A stretch of DNA of 41,858 nt, taken from the UHGV virus genome UHGV-0466892; one strand, given 5' to 3'. Position 1 is the stretch's first letter. Each line of letters starts with the position of its first letter. A program made the translations under genes and the position numbers. The stretch is from a virus. The notes under the pieces are model-generated. The model had not been told where the DNA came from. It made no database searches and saw only the letters and a list, made by a program, of their open reading frames with translations. This document shows positions 33,983 to 41,858 of the stretch, piece by piece.

Positions 33983-34120
33983 CGAAAACCCCGCGCAAGG
34001 CGGGATTCACGTCCGGTGCCACCGACCAAAGTTACACCGGAATTTATACCAAACCAAAAAACATCCAATGGGCGCTATCTCTGGCCCGGGGATTCTAACA
34101 CTCAAAAAAGAGGATCTCAC

Positions 34121-36955
34121 ATGGAATTTTTCCATCTGATAAAAGCCAGTCAGAAGTCTGGCAAGAAAGATGCAGTGATTTGGTTCACTGCGAAAAGTGT
34201 AGCGCGCGCCAATCTCCAACTCGATGTGGCACTGGAAGAAGCCGGAATTGAAGAAACTGGCCGCGGTAAAGATTATGCCAAACCAATCCGCACCGATTTC
34301 CCGGTATATGACGACCTGCCGGAAGAAGGCGCAGTGGATTACACCTGGTGCAAACGCTACGAACTGCAGAACGATGACCGCACCTGGCTGCCAAAAGTCA
34401 CAGCTGAAAACTCTGACGAGAAAACGGCTCAGACCGTTGATAGTCACATAACTACTGAGTCAACGCTGCCAGAAACCGCTGGCATCACGCTGGACGAACA
34501 CGACGACGACTCAACCCTCTACCCGGTAGTGCAGATGCCGTTTCGTAAGCAACTGCTTTCCCAGTTCACCGCCGACGAACTGCGCCACCACGTAACCCGC
34601 GAAGAGTACGAAGCTATCGGCGCGCTGGAGATGGACACTGATAACAGTTACGTCCAGAACTTGCTGTTAGCTGCTGAGAACTGCCCGGAAGTGAAGGGTT
34701 ACGACACCAAAGACCTGTGGCGCTACACCGATGCCATTCGCAAAGTGTTCAGCCAGGACAAGCGTCACGAACTCGCGCTGGTACTCCGTTTCACCAGAAT
34801 GTGGGCGGCGACTGATTACATTGACCGTGGCATCCTGGCGCGTGAATGGGCTGCCGGTAATCACATCAGTAGTGTTCAGCGCACTGACGCAGGTACCAAT
34901 GCCGATGGTGGATATGTCACCGACCGCGGCGAAGGTGCGCATCACACGCTGGACACACTGGATCTGGAGATCGCCTGTGCCCTGCTGCCGATGGATTTCA
35001 ACCACCTTGAGATCCCGGGCAGCATTCACCGTCGCGCCAAAGAAATCGTGGCGAAAAAAGAAGAGCCCTGGAAATCATGGAGCGCCCTTCTGCGTAACCA
35101 GCCTGGCGTTCTGTCGGTAAACCGTGCGGCCATTTTCAACCTGGTACGGATCGCACCGGAAAACATTCATCGTACGCCGGCGGCCCATCTGGAGTTCGTT
35201 AACCAGACCATGACCGCTGAGTTTAACGCCGCAACTGAACTGATGCCCCTGCGCGCGTCCGCGGTTCAGACGCAAGTAGAGGTTGAGGAACCAACAGCTC
35301 AGCCGCAGGTCGCGAACCTCGGCGGTGGCATGTTCTCCATCAATGGCCTGTTGAGTGGAAATACTAACCCGGTCATCAATATTCCCTCAAATGAAGCAGA
35401 AAAACCGGAAACCGTAGTGGAGACCACCAGCGATGTGCAGATGGAAGCGACTCAGCCAGAGAAAGACAAAACTGTTGATACGGTACCACCAGGCGAAAGC
35501 GCTGATGCAACTGATCCGCAAACAGATACCCTGAACCCGGCTGAGGTGCTCTCCGCCGCGGCGCCGGAGCTGGCGAACGCCACTACGCAGGAATTGACCA
35601 CCGAAGCATCAGAGGAGAAAGCGAGCGCGCCGGAAGAGCAACCTTCACAACCGGTCCCGGAATACCCGGCGTACTTCGAACCGGGCCGCTATGAAGGCGT
35701 GCCGAATGACGTTTATCACGCGGCGAACGGGATCAGTTCCACCCAGGTGAAGGATGCCAGGGTCAGCCTGATGTACTTCAACGCGCGCCACGTCGCCAAA
35801 ACTATCCCGCGGGCCCCTTCCAAGGTGCTGGACATGGGTAATCTGGTTCACGCCCTGGCGCTGCAGCCTGAAAACCTTGAGGCAGAGTTCAGCGTGGAGC
35901 CGGAGATCCCGGAAGATGCTTTTACTACCACCGCCACCCTGCGCGAGTTCATCGATTCGCACAACGCCACCCTGCCGGCACTGCTGAGCACTGACGATAT
36001 CAAAGCGCTGCTTGAAGAGCACAACGCCACCCTGCCCGCGCAGCTGCCGCTGGGCGCCAGCCTGGAGGAAACGGCCCAGAGCTATATGGCTTTGCCGGCA
36101 GAGTACCAGCGCATCGAGCCAGACCAGAAGCAGACCGCAGCAGCTATGAAAGCCTGCATCAAAGAGTACAACGCCACCCTGCCCGCGCCGGTTAAAACCA
36201 GCGGCAGCCGCGATGCGCTGCTTGAACAGCTGGCAATCATCAACCCTGACCTGGTGGAGCAGGAAGCCCAGAAGCCGGCACCGCTTAAGGTGTCCGGCAG
36301 CAAAGCGGAAATGATCCAAGCGATTAAGTCGGTTAAACCCGATGCCGTATTCGCCGACGAGCTGCTGGACGCCTGGCGAGAAAATCCGGGCGACAAGATT
36401 CTGGTGACGCGCCAGCAGCTGGTGACCGCCCAGGCCATCCAGTCGGCCCTGCTGGCACACCCGACCGCAGGCATGCTGCTAACCCACCCGAGCCGCGCCG
36501 TTGAGGTGAGCTACTTTGGCTTTGACGAGGAGACGGGACTGGAAGTTCGTGTGCGCCCTGACCTTGAGATCGACCTAGACGGCGTGCGTATCGGTGCTGA
36601 CCTGAAAACCATCAGCATGTGGAATGTTAAGCAGGAAAGCCTGCGCGCCAGGCTACACCGGGAAATTATTGAACGTGATTATCACCTGAGCGCGGCTATG
36701 TACTGCGAAACCGCAGCGCTGGATCAGTTCTTCTGGATTTTCGTCAACAAAGACGAGAACTACCACTGGATCGCCATCATCGAGGCATCCGCTGAACTAC
36801 TGGAGCTGGGTATGCTCGAGTACCGCAAAGCGATGCGCAATATCGCAACCGGATTCGACACAGGTGAATGGCCAGCGCCAATCACTGCTGACTACACCGA
36901 CGAACTGAACGACTTCGACCTGCGCCGCCTTGAAGCGCTGCGTACTCAGGCATAA
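34121..36955 (+). CDS. RecE-like 5'-3' exonuclease (exodeoxyribonuclease VIII-like, C-terminal PD-(D/E)xK domain)
   Basis: Start set at ATG 34121 (AGAGGA Shine-Dalgarno); ~944 aa; acidic low-complexity middle with repeats; C-terminal VRPDLEIDLDGVRIGADLKT fits PD-(D/E)xK; immediately followed by an annealing-protein gene. Confidence 0.55.
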   Translation: MEFFHLIKASQKSGKKDAVIWFTAKSVARANLQLDVALEEAGIEETGRGKDYAKPIRTDFPVYDDLPEEGAVDYTWCKRYELQNDDRTWLPKVTAENSDEKTAQTVDSHITTESTLPETAGITLDEHDDDSTLYPVVQMPFRKQLLSQFTADELRHHVTREEYEAIGALEMDTDNSYVQNLLLAAENCPEVKGYDTKDLWRYTDAIRKVFSQDKRHELALVLRFTRMWAATDYIDRGILAREWAAGNHISSVQRTDAGTNADGGYVTDRGEGAHHTLDTLDLEIACALLPMDFNHLEIPGSIHRRAKEIVAKKEEPWKSWSALLRNQPGVLSVNRAAIFNLVRIAPENIHRTPAAHLEFVNQTMTAEFNAATELMPLRASAVQTQVEVEEPTAQPQVANLGGGMFSINGLLSGNTNPVINIPSNEAEKPETVVETTSDVQMEATQPEKDKTVDTVPPGESADATDPQTDTLNPAEVLSAAAPELANATTQELTTEASEEKASAPEEQPSQPVPEYPAYFEPGRYEGVPNDVYHAANGISSTQVKDARVSLMYFNARHVAKTIPRAPSKVLDMGNLVHALALQPENLEAEFSVEPEIPEDAFTTTATLREFIDSHNATLPALLSTDDIKALLEEHNATLPAQLPLGASLEETAQSYMALPAEYQRIEPDQKQTAAAMKACIKEYNATLPAPVKTSGSRDALLEQLAIINPDLVEQEAQKPAPLKVSGSKAEMIQAIKSVKPDAVFADELLDAWRENPGDKILVTRQQLVTAQAIQSALLAHPTAGMLLTHPSRAVEVSYFGFDEETGLEVRVRPDLEIDLDGVRIGADLKTISMWNVKQESLRARLHREIIERDYHLSAAMYCETAALDQFFWIFVNKDENYHWIAIIEASAELLELGMLEYRKAMRNIATGFDTGEWPAPITADYTDELNDFDLRRLEALRTQA

Positions 36956-36960
36956 GGGGA

Positions 36961-38079
36961 ATGATGATGGAAAACACGAATATCGTAACCGCTGAACAGC
37001 AGACTCCAAACACGATCTCAGCCAGCAATGCCATTTTCAACGTGCAGGCTTTAACCCAGCTTCAGTCTGTCGCCGGGTTGATGGCACAGGCAGCCGTAAC
37101 GGTGCCTGAGCACCTCCGCGGCAATCCGGCAGACTGCATGGCCATCATCATGCAGGCGATGCAGTGGGGTATGAACCCTTACGCCGTGGCGCAAAAGACG
37201 CACCTGGTTAACGGTGTCCTGGGATACGAAGCGCAACTGGTTAATGCGGTGATCTCCAGCTCAAACGCCATCGTTGGCCGCTTTCACTATGAGTACGAGG
37301 GCGACTGGTCGAAATGTGCCAGCAGCCGCGAGATAACCGTTAAAAAGCCTGCGAAAGGTGGCGGGACGTACGACAAGAAAGAAATGGTACGCGGTTGGGA
37401 AAGTGCTGATGAACAAGGACTGTCGGTACGGGTAGGTGCCGTTATTCGCGGTGAAAGTGATATCACCTGGGGAGAGCCTGTTTTCCTCTCCAGCGTAATC
37501 ACACGTAATTCTCCACTTTGGGTATCAAACCCGAAACAGCAGATCGCTTATCTGGCACTCAAATACTGGGCGCGCCTGTATTGCCCTGCAGTTGTTCTTG
37601 GTGTGTACACCCCTGATGAGATTGAACAGCGCACAGAAAAAGAGATCAACCCAACGCCGCAACGCGTTAGCCTGGCTGATATCTCAGGTGACACCGTCAC
37701 AACCACGCAAAGCGCACAGGAATCGTCGGTAAATGTCGGCTCTCTTGCCGATGATTTCCGCGAACGCATCGAATCTGCTCAGGACGTGGATAGCGCCAAA
37801 TCGCTGCGTGCCGACATTGAAACGGCGAAAGCTACGCTGGGATCCGCACTATTCACCGAGCTGAAAAACAAAGCCGTAAAGCGTTATTACCTAGTGGATG
37901 CACGCAACAAGGTTGAGGAGGCTATTAAATCCCTGCCCCAGCCCGACGAGCCGCATGCAGCCGAACGGTTCGCTGAAGCCGAGCGCATGCTTGCATCTTC
38001 AAAGCGTCACTTAGGCGATGAACTGCACGATCAATTCAGCATCACCCTGGCGGATATGAAACCGGAATACGTGGCCTGA
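36961..38079 (+). CDS. single-strand annealing recombinase, RecT/Red-beta superfamily
   Basis: 372 aa; segment ADCMAIIMQAMQWGMNPYAV ... GVLGYEAQL resembles the conserved core of Red-beta/RecT proteins. Confidence 0.7.
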   Translation: MMMENTNIVTAEQQTPNTISASNAIFNVQALTQLQSVAGLMAQAAVTVPEHLRGNPADCMAIIMQAMQWGMNPYAVAQKTHLVNGVLGYEAQLVNAVISSSNAIVGRFHYEYEGDWSKCASSREITVKKPAKGGGTYDKKEMVRGWESADEQGLSVRVGAVIRGESDITWGEPVFLSSVITRNSPLWVSNPKQQIAYLALKYWARLYCPAVVLGVYTPDEIEQRTEKEINPTPQRVSLADISGDTVTTTQSAQESSVNVGSLADDFRERIESAQDVDSAKSLRADIETAKATLGSALFTELKNKAVKRYYLVDARNKVEEAIKSLPQPDEPHAAERFAEAERMLASSKRHLGDELHDQFSITLADMKPEYVA

Positions 38080-38117: not shown

Positions 38118-38360
38118 ATGCGACTGATCAATCGAGGAAGTAAGCAATCACCTTTAGCTCGCCAAGCATGCGACATCGCGCTGGCAGCTCACTTGCAAAC
38201 ATATGGCGACTATGGGCGAAGCAAGATGAAAGAGACTTATACGGTGAAGGTTGAAGGCGTGAAAGTCTGGGTGGAGGTGGTGAACCGAAAGGCGAGCTAC
38301 GTGGCCACAGCGATGACCGGCATGCGCCGTCTCCGCTCCCTGCCCGGGCAGGTTGGTTGA
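38118..38360 (+). CDS. small hypothetical protein
   Basis: 80 aa; ATG with AGGAG Shine-Dalgarno, preceded by a GC hairpin gggaggg-gtaa-ccctccc. Confidence 0.4.
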   Translation: MRLINRGSKQSPLARQACDIALAAHLQTYGDYGRSKMKETYTVKVEGVKVWVEVVNRKASYVATAMTGMRRLRSLPGQVG

Positions 38361-38401
38361 AAAAGATTTTGAATGGCCCGAACGGGCAACTGGAGAGAGC
38401 T

Positions 38402-38599
38402 ATGGATGATATTTTGGTAACGTCAGACCTGACCAGTCGCTACAAAATTTCACGCAAAACCCTTTGGTCATGGCAAAGTGCAGACACAATGCCTCGGGGC
38501 TTCGTATGCCCGTTCCCACCCCCTGACTGGCCCGGCAACCCTAACCGCTGGCGCTCTGAGTCAATCAAAGAGTGGGAGGATAAAAAGAAGATAAATTAA
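38402..38599 (+). CDS. xis: excisionase / AlpA-family DNA-binding protein
   Basis: Start set at ATG 38402 ([25 protein letters not shown]...FPPPDW...WRSESIKEW) matching the AlpA/Xis HTH pattern; 3' end abuts the integrase 3' end. Confidence 0.6.
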
Positions 38600-39789
38600 C
38601 TGAAGGGCTCTCCGATGATCTCTTCAAGATGGCTCTGCCAAACGCGGAGCCAGTGTTTCTGATCATCGATATAGTCATGAAGGTTGTAATGCGCCATAAC
38701 CCCCACCATCTGATGCCCGAGCAGCTTTTCAATTACGTGCGGCGGGCAACCTAACTCAGAGAGATTTGTGGCTATCGTCCGCCTCATATCATGAAGCGAC
38801 CACTCTGCCATACCTGTTCCATTCCAAATAGAACGGGCGTAATTGGATGCCACAGGTGAATGAACGGGCGAATCTTTGATCCCGCCATCAATTTTACGTT
38901 GTGAAGTCACCAGGTGATTGGTGTTTATTTTCTTGAGGTGATTTCTGACCAAGTTAACGGCGGCGTCTGAGAGCCCCCTTCTAATATGTACCCGAGTTTT
39001 ATAACTGCCCGCAGGCACGACCCACTCATTATCATCCAATCGAAACCATGATCTCTCACTAAGTCGAATCTCAGCCGTACGGCATCCGGTAAGCATAATA
39101 AATTTCACCAGGAAAACGGACTCTATCGACATATGGCTTTTCAACCACTGATAGATTTTGCGCAGATCGTCATCGTCCATCCTGCGAGTTCTCTTTTTAG
39201 GCTTTTGCCCGACATCAGATGGCAGTAATCCCTCGAGTGGGTTTGAGGCGATCACACTTCTGTTAACGCAGAACCTAAACGCCCGTTTGCACAGCGAAAG
39301 CATGTAATGAGCCATCACCCTGCTTTCTATAGAATCGAAGACGTTGATCCAGTGCATTTTCGCTGTGTTATCGACTTTGACATTCTTCATCGGTTCGGCG
39401 ATATGTTTCTCAAACACCTGGCGATAGTAATCGACTTTAACTAGCCCGTTAGCGATACAGTGCCTTTCAATCCAGTAATTGAACGCTTCGGCAACGGACA
39501 TCGCTTCCTGTCGGGTCTGCTTATCCAGCTTCACCTGCTCTCGCGGATCCAGTCCCTCAGTTAACCAGTTTCTGAATTGTTGGCGACGCTCTCTTGCCTG
39601 GGTGATACTCATTGCAGGATAATCACCAACATTGAGTTTTACCGCTTTACCGGCCCAGCGATACCGATAGAAAAATGATATTTTTCCGGCCTGGCTGATT
39701 CTGGCGTTGAGCCCGTGCGAATCAGAAATAATCTCGATATCATCTCTTTTCTTGCCGAGCGCCTTCCTGAGCTTTGTGTCGGTGATCAT
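38596..39789 (-). CDS. int: tyrosine site-specific integrase (P4-like family)
   Basis: Start set at the Met of [14 protein letters not shown]...[10 protein letters not shown] (typical N-terminus); C-terminal HDMRRT ... LGH ... AHY region carries the catalytic R/H/Y motifs; the track start at 39846 is a GTG through upstream repeats. Confidence 0.85.
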
Positions 39790-39794
39790 TGAAT

Positions 39795-39835
39795 GGGTAC
39801 ACATTTTTGTTTTTGGGTACACAAAAGTGTACACA
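39795..39835. repeat. three direct repeats G(G/T)GTACACA upstream of int (candidate regulator or arm-type sites)
   Basis: gggtacaca at 39795-39803 and 39815-39823, gtgtacaca at 39827-39835. Confidence 0.45.
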
Positions 39836-40060
39836 AAGTTGCCCACTCAAAGCTACACGCAATGTAACACTAGTTCGCAGAGTGTTATGGTTTACATCCT
39901 TGAAAGCCTGCTGGATAAGGGTTTAGCGTAACAGAACGTTTTTACGCGGAATTGTTCGTAATATGCCAAATGACAATTTAAGAAAGTGTTCTAATTTATT
40001 AGAAATTTGCACTTAAATCAAAAAGTTACGGACAATTCAACCACCAGTCAATAAATTAAA

Positions 40061-40092
40061 GGGCACATTAAAGTACACAATATTTGTGCCCT
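40061..40092 (-). terminator. terminator-like hairpin downstream of the invertase gene
   Basis: gggcaca ... tgtgccc 7-bp stem with an 18-nt loop, flanked by A/T-rich sequence on both sides. Confidence 0.4.
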
Positions 40093-40112
40093 TCTCTGTT
40101 TCTTTCCCGTTA

Positions 40113-40661
40113 TCAGCTAGCTGGAAACTTTTTATACAGAGTTGAGAGCCCTACTCCATACGTTTTTGATACGCTTTGTCGTGATTCACCGGTTGCCATC
40201 CGCTCCCCCATTTCCCGCCATTGCTCATCCGTGAACTTAGGCCTGCGACCACCAACTCGCCCTTTTGCCCTGGCTACGGCCAGCCCTGCTAAGGTACGTT
40301 CGCTATTAAGATCAGATTCATATTGTGCTGCGGAAAGGATGTTACGAAAGTTATAGCGGCCGCTGGCTGTTTTGAGATCCACGCCATCGGTAATACTGCG
40401 GAAGTTGATACCCTTTTCCTGTAACTGCTGGAACATCAACAGCGCATGCAGAACGTTGCGGCCTATCCTGTCCAGCTTCCAGACCACCAGTTCATCCCCC
40501 GGCTGCATAGTGGCGATCAGCCGTTTTAGAACCGGCCGATTCGATTTCCTCCCGCTGGCATGCTCTTCAAAAATTTTCTCACAACCCGCTGACTTGAGCG
40601 CCGTTAGTTGCAATTCAGTGTCCTGGTGGTTTGTTGATACTCGGGCATAACCGTAAATCAT
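40113..40661 (-). CDS. serine recombinase, DNA invertase of the Hin/Gin/Cin/Pin family
   Basis: Start set at MIYGYARVSTNHQDTELQ (catalytic Ser-containing N-terminus); C-terminal HTH; GGAGA Shine-Dalgarno; lies adjacent to an invertible fiber segment. Confidence 0.9.
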   Translation of the reverse strand: MIYGYARVSTNHQDTELQLTALKSAGCEKIFEEHASGRKSNRPVLKRLIATMQPGDELVVWKLDRIGRNVLHALLMFQQLQEKGINFRSITDGVDLKTASGRYNFRNILSAAQYESDLNSERTLAGLAVARAKGRVGGRRPKFTDEQWREMGERMATGESRQSVSKTYGVGLSTLYKKFPAS

Positions 40662-40665
40662 GGGA

Positions 40666-40692
40666 TTTCTCCTGTTATGAAAACAGGAGAAA
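40666..40692. repeat. perfect 11-bp inverted repeat tttctcctgtt / aacaggagaaa spanning the invertase ribosome-binding site
   Basis: Arms at 40666-40676 and 40682-40692 with a 5-nt spacer; the left arm supplies the invertase Shine-Dalgarno on the minus strand. Confidence 0.5.
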
Positions 40693-40713
40693 CGGCGAAG
40701 CATCACCAGATTT

Positions 40714-41205
40714 TTGATGGTTATAAAAAAGGTTGGTTTGGGAGAAGGCTCAGCGTTACCCGTTGGTGTACCTGTTCCGTGGCCTTCAGCCACTCCTCCA
40801 ACAGGCTGGCTGAAATGCAATGGTGCGCCTTTTTCTGCCGCACAATATCCGAAGTTGGCACTGGCTTATCCTAGTCTGGCATTGCCGAATTTACGCGGTG
40901 AGTTCATCCGTGGCTGGGATGACGGGCGCGGTATTGACGCGGGGCGCGAAATTCTGTCTGCTCAGGGTGACGCCATTCGAAATATCGTTGGACACATCTC
41001 ATGCGTGCGTCGTGGGAGTGGATTTTCAGACCTTAAAGATGGCGCGTTTAGATACGATAGCAACTGGTCTACAAAAATTAAAGGGGATGGGGTCGAAGAC
41101 GACTGGGGGAGCGTAGTCTCATTTGATGCCAGTCGCGTAGTTCCAACTGCACCAGAAAACCGTCCACGCAGTATCGCATTTAACTTCATCGTGAGGGCCG
41201 CATAA
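40714..41205 (+). CDS. alternative tail fiber C-terminal (receptor-binding) cassette, start-less; expressed only after inversion
   Basis: Frame open from 40681 with no proper ATG or Shine-Dalgarno; KKVGLGEGSALPVGVPVPWPSATPPTGWLKCNGAPFSAAQYP...LRGEFIRGWDDGRGID is a typical variable fiber C-terminus. Confidence 0.7.
   Translation: MMVIKKVGLGEGSALPVGVPVPWPSATPPTGWLKCNGAPFSAAQYPKLALAYPSLALPNLRGEFIRGWDDGRGIDAGREILSAQGDAIRNIVGHISCVRRGSGFSDLKDGAFRYDSNWSTKIKGDGVEDDWGSVVSFDASRVVPTAPENRPRSIAFNFIVRAA
40721..40746. other. gix/hix-like inversion crossover site (partner of 709-734)
   Basis: TTATAAAAAAGG TT GGTTTGGGAGAA; the right half and TT core match the reverse complement of the site inside the fiber gene (TTCTCACATACC TT GGTTTGGGAACG). 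Confidence 0.6.
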
Positions 41206-41807
41206 TGACACAGGCAAAATTAAACAGTGAATTTATTGCCACAGTAGCGGGTGATATTACCGTCTATAACTATGACAACACGACACGGGAATACATTTCA
41301 TCATCAACAGAATATCTTGCCGTTGGCGTCGGTATCCCGGCATGTTCTTGTTTAGATGCGCCAGTTACACATAAAGCTGGTTATGCAATCTGCCGTTCTG
41401 CAGATTTTAACTCATGGGAATATGTGCCAGACCATCGCGGTGAAATCATCTATAGCACCGAAACAGGAGAATCGAAAGAAATCACAGCTCTGGGTGATTA
41501 CCCTGAAAATACAACCACTATCGCCCCGTTAACGCCATATGATAAATGGGATGGTGAGAAATGGGTGACGGATACTGAGGCACAGCATAGCGCCGCAGTA
41601 GAAGCGGCAGAAGCACAGCGCCAGTCACTGATTGATGCAGCAATGGCTTCCATTAGTCTGATTCAGCTGAAATTACAGGCCGGACGTAAACTTACGCAGG
41701 CAGAAACAACCAGGCTTAACGCTGTGCTGGATTACATTGACGCGGTGACGGCAACAGATACCAGCACCGCGCCGGATGTCATCTGGCCTGAACTGCCGGA
41801 GGTGTAG
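41205..41807 (+). CDS. tail fiber assembly protein (alternative Tfa)
   Basis: 200 aa; C-terminus ...TDTSTAPDVIWPELPEV is a typical Tfa ending; ATGA-coupled to the fiber cassette. Confidence 0.85.
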   Translation: MTQAKLNSEFIATVAGDITVYNYDNTTREYISSSTEYLAVGVGIPACSCLDAPVTHKAGYAICRSADFNSWEYVPDHRGEIIYSTETGESKEITALGDYPENTTTIAPLTPYDKWDGEKWVTDTEAQHSAAVEAAEAQRQSLIDAAMASISLIQLKLQAGRKLTQAETTRLNAVLDYIDAVTATDTSTAPDVIWPELPEV

Positions 41808-41858
41808 GCCATTCAATATCTGGCGCACCGGAAGTATCGACCAGTTCCAGTGTGTCCA
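41779..41858 (-). CDS. 3' end of the Tfa gene that begins at 361 (continuation across the window junction)
   Basis: Reading the minus strand from position 1 into 41858 keeps the frame: ...NLWLDY-LDTLELVDTSGAPDIEWPTPPAVQAR-stop at 41781-41779, a typical Tfa C-terminus. Confidence 0.6.
   Translation of the reverse strand, partial: DTLELVDTSGAPDIEWPTPPAVQAR

Follow-up and report, generated by a model that had tools for sequence, protein, structure and literature searches.

The window is the whole stretch of DNA that was analysed, the UHGV virus genome UHGV-0466892 of 41,858 nucleotides, and three of its genes frame the region considered here. The first, xis (38402-38599, plus strand), is an open reading frame for a 65-residue excisionase of the phi80 Xis type; the gene is annotated as xis or excisionase in phi80, HK225 and entry X04051, and the product matches PHROG 1553, 'excisionase', at 7e-34. 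The second, int (38596-39789, minus strand), encodes a tyrosine integrase of 397 residues with an N-terminal arm-binding domain, assigned from Pfam and from amino acid identity within the phi80 clade. The third, pin (40113-40661, minus strand), encodes a serine DNA invertase of 182 residues, matching Pfam Resolvase at 3.9e-39 together with HTH_7 and annotated as DNA invertase or pinL in phi80 and HK225. The xis and int genes converge and share 4 bp at their 3′ ends. A non-coding gap of 323 bp (39790-40112) extends from the int ATG (39789) to the stop codon of pin (40113), which marks its right-hand border; its GC content is 36.2%, compared to 52.4% for the window. A preliminary description of the region had reported the convergent genes and the AT-rich gap between the 5′ end of int and the invertase, and both observations hold; the length of 270 bp given there for the gap is incorrect.

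The attP and Int of phi80 have been available as sequences since 1985-86, and the int-xis-attP module of that phage was reportedly the subject of Leong et al. in 1985 (J Biol Chem 260:4468). The module in the window is very similar. Comparison of positions 38300-40750 with the xis-int-attP-pin regions of phi80, HK225 and mEp237 reveals nucleotide identities of 98.2-99.8% over 2.4 kb, the lowest value being that for phi80 and the highest that for HK225, and mEpX1 matches with 99.4% identity over 87% of the same query. The Int sequences of phi80, HK225 and mEp237 are 100% identical to that encoded here. Within the gap only two substitutions in 323 bp separate the window from phi80 and HK225, and both fall outside the core and the repeats discussed below. 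The phi80 GenBank record JX871397 annotates an attP core, a site for IHF and a 'possible' int promoter, pI, in the gap, and the attP core annotated in the HK225 record maps to window positions 39976-39992.

The excisionase had been labelled AlpA-like. We find that the 65-residue Xis does not match Pfam Phage_AlpA, even at E ≤ 10, and the label is unsupported in that sense. An alignment of phi80 Xis with AlpA, Vis and the e14 Xis has been published on the basis of limited similarity (PMC2603039). The convergent arrangement of xis and int recurs in the sapC clade, where the Xis homologues are 49-50% identical. Small genes also converge with int in Pm34 and SEN34; they display no significant similarity to phi80 Xis.

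Does the gap contain attP, as had been proposed, and what is the target for integration? Lysogen junctions provide the answer. We find the region in 178 out of a sample of 5426 complete E. coli genomes, and in every one it is split at the core, with no match spanning that sequence. The junctions thus lie inside the gap, noting that the lysogens examined carry the module and are not necessarily lysogens of this exact phage. The int-side piece, at attL, extends to about position 39995, where it abuts kch (strain ECCWS199); that on the pin side, at attR, has its first base at 39973 or 39976, in the last codons of yciI (strain ECCRA-119). The attP common core is the 17-bp sequence ATTTAAGAAAGTGTTCT at 39976-39992, as delimited by the HK225 annotation and by comparison of attL, attR and attB, and the crossover falls within it. 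It is found as a perfect 17-bp match in attL, in attR and in an attB rebuilt from the joined host flanks, the last being uninterrupted in 5269 of the 5426 genomes. Because these 17 bp also form the end of yciI, integration, between tonB-yciI and kch, leaves yciI intact; the TGA stop codon of the host gene is replaced by a TAA supplied by the phage bases 3′ of the core. An independent paper places the phi80 attB in the 3′ end of yciI (PMC13449921). The junctions, together with the public annotations, place attP in the int-invertase gap, and its identity with the published phi80 site is settled. The end and the start of the window adjoin in real genomes and attP is uninterrupted, so the window represents a circularly permuted, phage-form genome, and such a circular genome would lysogenise at yciI.

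No tRNA or tmRNA 3′ end is duplicated in this attP; the core corresponds to the 3′ end of a protein gene, yciI. The earlier remark that no tRNA-like segment is evident was therefore correct. The search for such genes that had been recommended was carried out; ARAGORN identifies no tRNA and no tmRNA in the whole window, and an Rfam scan of positions 39600-40300 returns no family at the gathering score. Rfam matches to a TMV pseudoknot and to mir-54 were both below the gathering score and are ascribed to chance. No convincing pair of inverted repeats, such as would mark core-type Int sites around the overlap region, could be defined from the sequence.

The gap also contains a set of GTAC-centred 9-mers. 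Three direct repeats of the form G(G/T)GTACACA had been described close to the int start and they are present as reported. Repeats 1 and 2 (39795-39803 and 39815-39823) are both GGGTACACA, or TGTGTACCC in the int sense, and repeat 3 (39827-39835) is GTGTACACA, or TGTGTACAC in the int sense; the GGGTACACA and GTGTACACA forms all read on the plus strand. The GTAC tetramers lie at −11, −31 and −43 relative to the int ATG. On the far side of the core, towards pin, there is a further good copy, TGTGTACTT in the int sense, at 40071-40079 in plus-strand coordinates (GTAC at −287), and 12 bp from it a degenerate copy, TGTGCCCTT, at 40059-40067. All five are assigned to the minus strand, that of int, as candidate arm-type Int sites. 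The distal arm of phi80 likewise has a single good copy only. Cloned attL and attR fragments of phi80 are known to support excision by Int and Xis (PMC2532685). The attL fragment used in that study extends from primer P2, which corresponds to window positions 39785-39809, out to the host flank, and so none of the three proximal repeats is missing from it. The attR fragment extends inside pin, to approximately 40290-40313 on our own reading of primer P3. Such fragments show sufficiency, not necessity.

Are the repeats simply a product of base composition? AT-rich DNA easily yields short repeats, the gap contains several others of 7-10 bp, and an unbiased count of 5-mers gives no significant result. 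The 6-mer version of that count has GTGTAC as the top repeated 6-mer, and 24 of 1000 shuffled sequences reach the observed value, which is moderately significant. The 9-mer G[GT]GTACACA occurs four times in the window where 0.34 occurrences are expected, a count reached in none of 100 shuffles, and four of the eight copies of the heptamer GTACACA in the 41.8 kb window fall inside the 323-bp gap (binomial P = 2.4e-7). The arrangement GTAC-N8-GTAC is confined, within the whole window, to the gap. A functionless cluster, arising by chance or duplication in AT-rich intergenic DNA, is extremely unlikely on these figures and, as described below, comparison with relatives effectively refutes it.

The domain structure of Int bears on the nature of the repeats. 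The protein combines an N-terminal Arm-DNA-bind_3 domain (Pfam, 1.5e-18) with a Phage_integrase catalytic domain (8e-17) and, since it has the arm-binding and tyrosine-recombinase parts of a two-domain integrase, arm-type sites are to be expected. Arm-type sites are usually asymmetric, and the motif in the gap is partly palindromic (GnGTACnC). Taking the repeat sequences and their distribution on both arms of attP together, we consider that they are probably the arm-type sites of Int. Outside the original papers (Leong 1985, 1986; Rotman 2012), a search of the literature yielded no report of phi80 Int bound to the repeats and no mention of TGTGTAC as an arm-type integrase site.

Comparison with relatives also supports that assignment. 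In the following, positions refer to the start of GTAC, in the int sense, relative to the int start. The values of −287 for the distal arm and −43, −31 and −11 for the proximal arm of the window compare with −276 and −42, −30 and −11 in Klebsiella phage Kp4864-1, where Int is 77% identical. Proximal sites are present at −42, −30 and −11 in lineage L072 (Int 79%) and, in two sets of IMG/VR sequences, at −40, −28 (degenerate) and −9 (L075/76, Int 60%) and at −35 and −23 (L083/84, Int 54%). In the sapC-side Stx2a-converting and Klebsiella phages (Int 52%) the sites are at −38, −26 (as GTAT) and −7. Salmonella phage Oslo (Int 34%) has −275 and −263 on the distal arm with −44 and −32 on the proximal, Proteus phage Pm34 (Int 35%) has −269 and −257 with −36, −24 and −6, and SEN34 (Int 34%), in which the motif is the variant AGTACA, has −302 and −290 with −50, −39 and −15. 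The proximal layout is conserved, in the same orientation, across at least 10 integrase lineages with Int identity as low as 34%, and the distal layout across five (the window, Kp4864-1, Oslo, Pm34 and SEN34). Typically there is a pair spaced by 12 bp at the int start, usually accompanied by a third copy; an equivalent of repeat 1 is present at −6 to −15 in most lineages. The distal pair, some 230-250 bp upstream, is visible only in those lineages for which the distal arm was available. Many IMG/VR prophage contigs end exactly at the int start, giving no upstream sequence, and for the sapC clade the proximal arm alone was available; the Stx2a_2499 record has no att direct repeats at its ends and seems to end in other DNA.

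Closer relatives show the same selective retention. In five Kluyvera and Citrobacter prophages (Int 81-87%), which occupy variants of the same core that differ by species, the three proximal copies are retained amid neighbouring sequence that has diverged. Repeat 1 is invariant in all five, and at the position of repeat 2 the relatives carry TGCGTACTC, 12 bp from repeat 3. The Kp4864-1 record starts at its core and joining its ends restores attP; the distal arm so recovered keeps TGTGTACTT and, 12 bp on, a degenerate TGTGTCCTT, although the surrounding DNA has diverged. Full 12-bp-spaced distal pairs are present in Oslo, Pm34 and SEN34. The upstream regions of these three phages align with that of the window no better than shuffled sequence, so the recurrence of the motif is not residual homology. 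Such invariance of the repeats beside diverged sequence, and the recurrence of the layout in at least 10 lineages, is not the behaviour of a chance cluster. Between the Int proteins of phi80 and the sapC clade the N-terminal domain is 70-73% identical and the rest of the protein 46-47%, which fits a shared arm motif used with a different core.

An alternative is that the repeats are conserved as protein, being coding sequence of an N-terminally extended integrase of 416 residues, starting at a GTG at 39846, or of 402 residues, starting at an ATG at 39804. The frame is open from 39846, X04051 gives the 416-residue 'longest form' and JX871397 the 402-residue form. The alternative ATG (39804-39802), inside repeat 1, which itself ends 6 bp ahead of the main int ATG, is in frame and is kept so in the phi80-clade relatives, and the sapC clade also has an upstream in-frame ATG inside its first repeat. 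The longer form is not conserved, however, because in all five Kluyvera and Citrobacter relatives an indel of 1 nt, located between repeat 2 and repeat 1, shifts the GTG out of frame. The repeats occupy different reading frames in different lineages, and in Pm34 the upstream ATG meets a stop codon. The variable reading frame and the indel indicate that the repeats are elements at the level of DNA and not codons. In addition, the distal copies are in non-coding DNA, and the match to the Pfam arm-binding domain starts only at residue 7 in the 402-residue form, equivalent to residue 2 in the 397-residue form. We therefore judge it very unlikely that coding accounts for the repeats. An extension of int by five codons from the ATG at 39804 is possible, and would be compatible with a role of the repeats as arm sites.

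Several other elements in the gap can be placed relative to the core and the repeats. A 13-bp sequence, AATCAAAAAGTTA, at 40016-40028 on the plus strand corresponds to the protein_bind feature for IHF in JX871397. It is an exact match to the IHF consensus WATCAANNNNTTR, one of only two in the window, and is a predicted site. The inverted repeat aacact-N9-agtgtt noted previously is present at 39865-39887, and its arms extend to 7 bp (TAACACT-N9-AGTGTTA, 100% complementary). Only the int-proximal half, AGTGTTACATTG in the int sense with TGTTAC at −80, is kept in every phi80-clade relative; the left half is absent in Kp4864-1. A second copy of TGTTAC, at −144, is held within a 34-bp block at 39925-39958, CGAACAATTCCGCGTAAAAACGTTCTGTTACGCT in the int sense, between the core and the possible int promoter. 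This block is nearly invariant across six sequences whose flanks have diverged and is recognizable in Kp4864-1; candidates for the protein that binds it are Xis or a bending protein. In both the window and the Kluyvera sequences the motif TGTT(A/T)C is found close to −144 and −80, with similar positions in Oslo and Pm34. Near pin, on the minus strand at 40059-40093, a hairpin of composition AAGGGCACA-N17-TGTGCCCTT, with a 9- to 10-bp stem and the distal repeat in its loop, is followed by a T-rich run. Its predicted fold has an energy of −16.3 kcal/mol (z = −1.78), and it is probably the terminator of pin. The terminator scan missed it because the loop exceeds 8 nt.

The position of the proximal repeats relative to the start of int raises the matter of a promoter. 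The gap had also been proposed to hold the int promoter. The phi80 record places pI there, with a −10 element, TACACT, inside repeat 3 and a spacer of 21 bp, under the label 'possible'. A consensus scan of 39700-40200 for promoters and terminators gave no matches, with no sigma-70-like promoter, a result consistent with a weak or activator-dependent int promoter. The overlap of repeats and promoter is consequently on weak ground, as the scan finds none and the annotated pI is itself only 'possible' with a 21-bp spacer. The predicted fold of the int leader is not better than that of shuffled sequences (z = −0.4).

These same features could be read differently, with the GTACACA repeats serving as operators for a transcription factor at the int promoter, whether a CII-like activator, a phage repressor or a dimeric host regulator; attP would in that case need nothing beyond the core, the IHF site and further sites not recognized here. 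The GTAC-centred partial palindrome would suit such a protein, and repeat 2 lies within a 16-bp near-palindrome, TTTTGnGTACnCAAAA. The repeats coincide with the annotated −10 element and the leader, and failure to detect a sigma-70-like promoter suggests dependence on an activator. Operators are nevertheless difficult to reconcile with the further copies located 230-250 bp away, beyond the core, where that of the window is inside the loop of the pin terminator and no int promoter is expected. The two-arm layout is found also in Kp4864-1, Oslo, Pm34 and SEN34, and the motif tracks the integrase across siphoviruses and myoviruses of different backbones, changing where Int is most diverged (SEN34, AGTACA). 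All copies share a single orientation, as expected for arm sites. On balance an operator function in place of Int binding appears improbable.

If the GTAC 9-mers are taken as arm-type sites, the components of the gap can be assembled into a proposed intasome. In Int, a heterobivalent protein, the catalytic, core-binding part works at the core, with crossover within the 17-bp ATTTAAGAAAGTGTTCT (39976-39992), and the Arm-DNA-bind_3 domain would bind the 9-mers centred on GTAC (int-sense TG[T/C]GTACnn). The int-side arm would be provided by three such sites (39795-39835), and the pin-side arm by one good plus one degenerate copy (40059-40079). IHF bound at 40016-40028 would bend the DNA to allow the intasome to form. 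In such a model a weak promoter within the arm would serve int alone, and the convergent xis would be expressed from the early leftward operon.

A regulatory consequence may follow. The annotated −10, the leader and the start codon of int all fall under the three proximal sites, hence Int bound at those sites should repress int. A precedent is the int promoter of KplE1, which lies inside attL with an arm-type site over its −10; both IntS and the excisionase repress it (PMC2951348). By analogy we infer autoregulation of int by Int at the proximal arm sites.

How general is this organization? The comparisons lead us to favour, somewhat guardedly, the proposal that a broad clade of Arm-DNA-bind_3 integrases, represented here by phi80, the sapC-side Stx2a and Klebsiella phages, Oslo, Pm34, SEN34 and several IMG/VR lineages, shares a single arm-site grammar. 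Each arm would carry a 12-bp-spaced pair of GTAC 9-mers, a further copy would abut or overlap the int start codon, the core would be positioned about 190 bp upstream of int, and TGTT(A/T)C would occur at about −80 and −140. If this is true then the start region of int doubles as an arm, Int occupancy directly gates synthesis of the protein, and core specificity (yciI, the sapC side and others) can be swapped leaving the arm code untouched. We find no description of such a clade-wide grammar in the searchable literature.

On the basis of the observations as a whole, we have little doubt that positions 39790-40112 constitute the attP and int control region of a phi80-type site-specific recombination module, in which the GTAC 9-mers are the candidate arm sites. 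The preliminary interpretation was essentially right, yet the arrangement is the published one of phi80 and so already known. CRIM-type plasmids routinely employ the Int and attP of phi80 to insert DNA in single copy into the E. coli chromosome (PMC2532685, PMC4111918). The feature being the long-known phi80 region, the analysis contributes little to discovery. What it adds, modestly, is only the comparative evidence that the GTACACA repeats form part of a conserved arrangement of probable Int arm sites on two arms. A map of these GTAC repeats could help in designing a minimal attP, or in swapping specificity, for a widely used integrase.

Comparisons with other recombination systems help to place the module. 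The lambda attP (POP′, with P1, P2, P′1-3, IHF and Xis) likewise serves a two-domain tyrosine integrase and is an AT-rich region of about 300 bp, in which direct-repeat arm-type sites, here candidates, flank a short core, in company with an IHF consensus and a small winged-helix-type excisionase. In lambda, attP is downstream of int, and int and xis overlap and are co-transcribed. This is not the case here, where attP is upstream, the predicted int promoter is in the arm and xis is convergent. Retroregulation of the sib type is accordingly not possible. The lambda arm consensus is unrelated to the TGTGTAC of the window, and the N-terminal domain of the window Int differs from that of lambda in being of the Pfam Arm-DNA-bind_3, P4-like type.

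The P4-type integrases of satellite phages and islands, for example the CP4-57 IntA with AlpA, have Arm-DNA-bind_3 in common with the window Int and attP or attL upstream of the 5′ end of int. As in those systems, the excisionase here is a small HTH protein; its similarity to AlpA and Vis is limited (PMC2603039). They differ in that the module in the window has no tRNA or tmRNA target, an Xis outside the Pfam AlpA model and a complete temperate phage, not an island, around it. KplE1 (CPS-53), with IntS and TorI, is similar in the orientation of the int 5′ end towards att, in a promoter, for the window a predicted one, within the arm and over arm-type sites (candidates in the window) near −10, and in the expression of the excisionase apart from int. 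The KplE1 target is a tRNA gene, argW, whereas here it is a protein gene, and autoregulation by IntS is demonstrated where that of the window Int is one that we infer.

The closest counterpart is of course the phi80 module itself (GenBank X04051 and JX871397; also in HK225, mEp237 and mEpX1), with the same 17-bp core, IHF site and repeats, the same target at the 3′ end of yciI and the same convergent xis and int. Apart from the two substitutions in the gap, the differences involve what surrounds it. Downstream of pin, phi80 has pseudogene fragments and the window an apparently intact invertible tail-fibre cassette. A search for inverted repeats seeded with 11 nt missed the second crossover site of the invertase, which visual inspection revealed as a match of 11 bp. 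With respect to the backbone, phi80 is a siphovirus, whereas the structural half of the window is that of a myovirus, 96% identical to Citrobacter phage Omnitron. The locus is thus an example of modularity, the recombination module of phi80 having been transferred whole to the backbone of an unrelated myovirus.

The structural genes of the window, encoding a myovirus tail, portal and terminase, match Citrobacter phage Omnitron with 96% identity over 76% of positions 1-24000. The recombination module (38300-40750), carrying the integrase gene int, xis and the serine DNA invertase gene pin, is that of phi80. The genome is a mosaic, and the combination of Omnitron-like structural genes with the phi80 module implies that the phi80 int/attP cassette has been transferred between unrelated phage backbones.

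The window is a circular permutation. When its end and start are joined, a tail fibre assembly gene forms a single reading frame across the 41858/1 junction, and the 800-bp sequence made by this joining occurs without interruption in E. coli genomes (coverage 100%, identity 99.6%); one instance is a P2-like prophage of strain KMi029. Since the window is permuted in this way and the attachment site attP is intact, it represents a phage-form genome rather than an integrated prophage.

Just upstream of xis and a DUF4060 gene (38118-38360), positions 34016-38079 encode a RecE-like exonuclease of 979 amino acids and a RecT-like annealing protein of 372 amino acids. The same RecE-like, RecT-like, DUF4060 and xis arrangement is present in HK225 and in E. 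coli lysogens. Among the E. coli genomes carrying phi80-type DNA, the laboratory strains DH5alpha, DH10B, TOP10, NEB 5-alpha and HST04 display the int-side junction only, which is left over from the phi80 lacZ-deltaM15 prophage. In certain natural isolates phi80-type DNA occurs at up to four places, which suggests tandem or multiple elements.

Adjacent to pin is an invertible tail-fibre cassette resembling the Mu G segment (40721-41858 joined to 1-1170). The plus strand carries an alternative, Collar-domain fibre tip (40714-41205) along with its assembly gene (41205-41807). On the minus strand are the expressed tail fibre (364-1170) and a further, convergent assembly gene; this gene spans the window end, running from 361 to 1 and continuing at 41858. 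A hix/gix-like 26-mer is located at 40721-40746, and 11 bp of it, TTGGTTTGGGA, recur inverted in the fibre gene (40733-40743 on the plus strand versus 722-712 on the minus strand). The positions of these copies would imply an invertible segment of about 1.85 kb.

Between the attP core and the int promoter a 34-bp block (39925-39958) is nearly invariant among relatives. Another motif, TGTT(A/T)C, is repeated at approximately -144 and -80 from int, in 39925-39958 and 39859-39871, and at equivalent positions Salmonella phage Oslo and Proteus phage Pm34 carry tandem copies with 10-bp spacing. The block and the motif copies are possibly excisionase or activator sites.

Integrases of the Klebsiella ST11-VIM1phi8.2 and Stx2a-converting phages (lineages L014 and L015) are 52% identical to phi80 Int and adjoin the start of sapC. 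There seem to be two candidates for their start codon, a TTG abutting the third of the GTAC-centred repeats and an in-frame ATG within the first; with the ATG start the candidate arm-type repeats would fall within the first 14 codons.

Oslo and Pm34 are distantly related phages whose hosts belong to different genera; both have exactly the same 19-mer, ATGTGATCTTGCGTATAAG, at about -196 to -176 and -190 to -170 from int, respectively. It is probably an att core common to both phages and situated in a conserved host gene; its distance upstream of int is that of the phi80 core.
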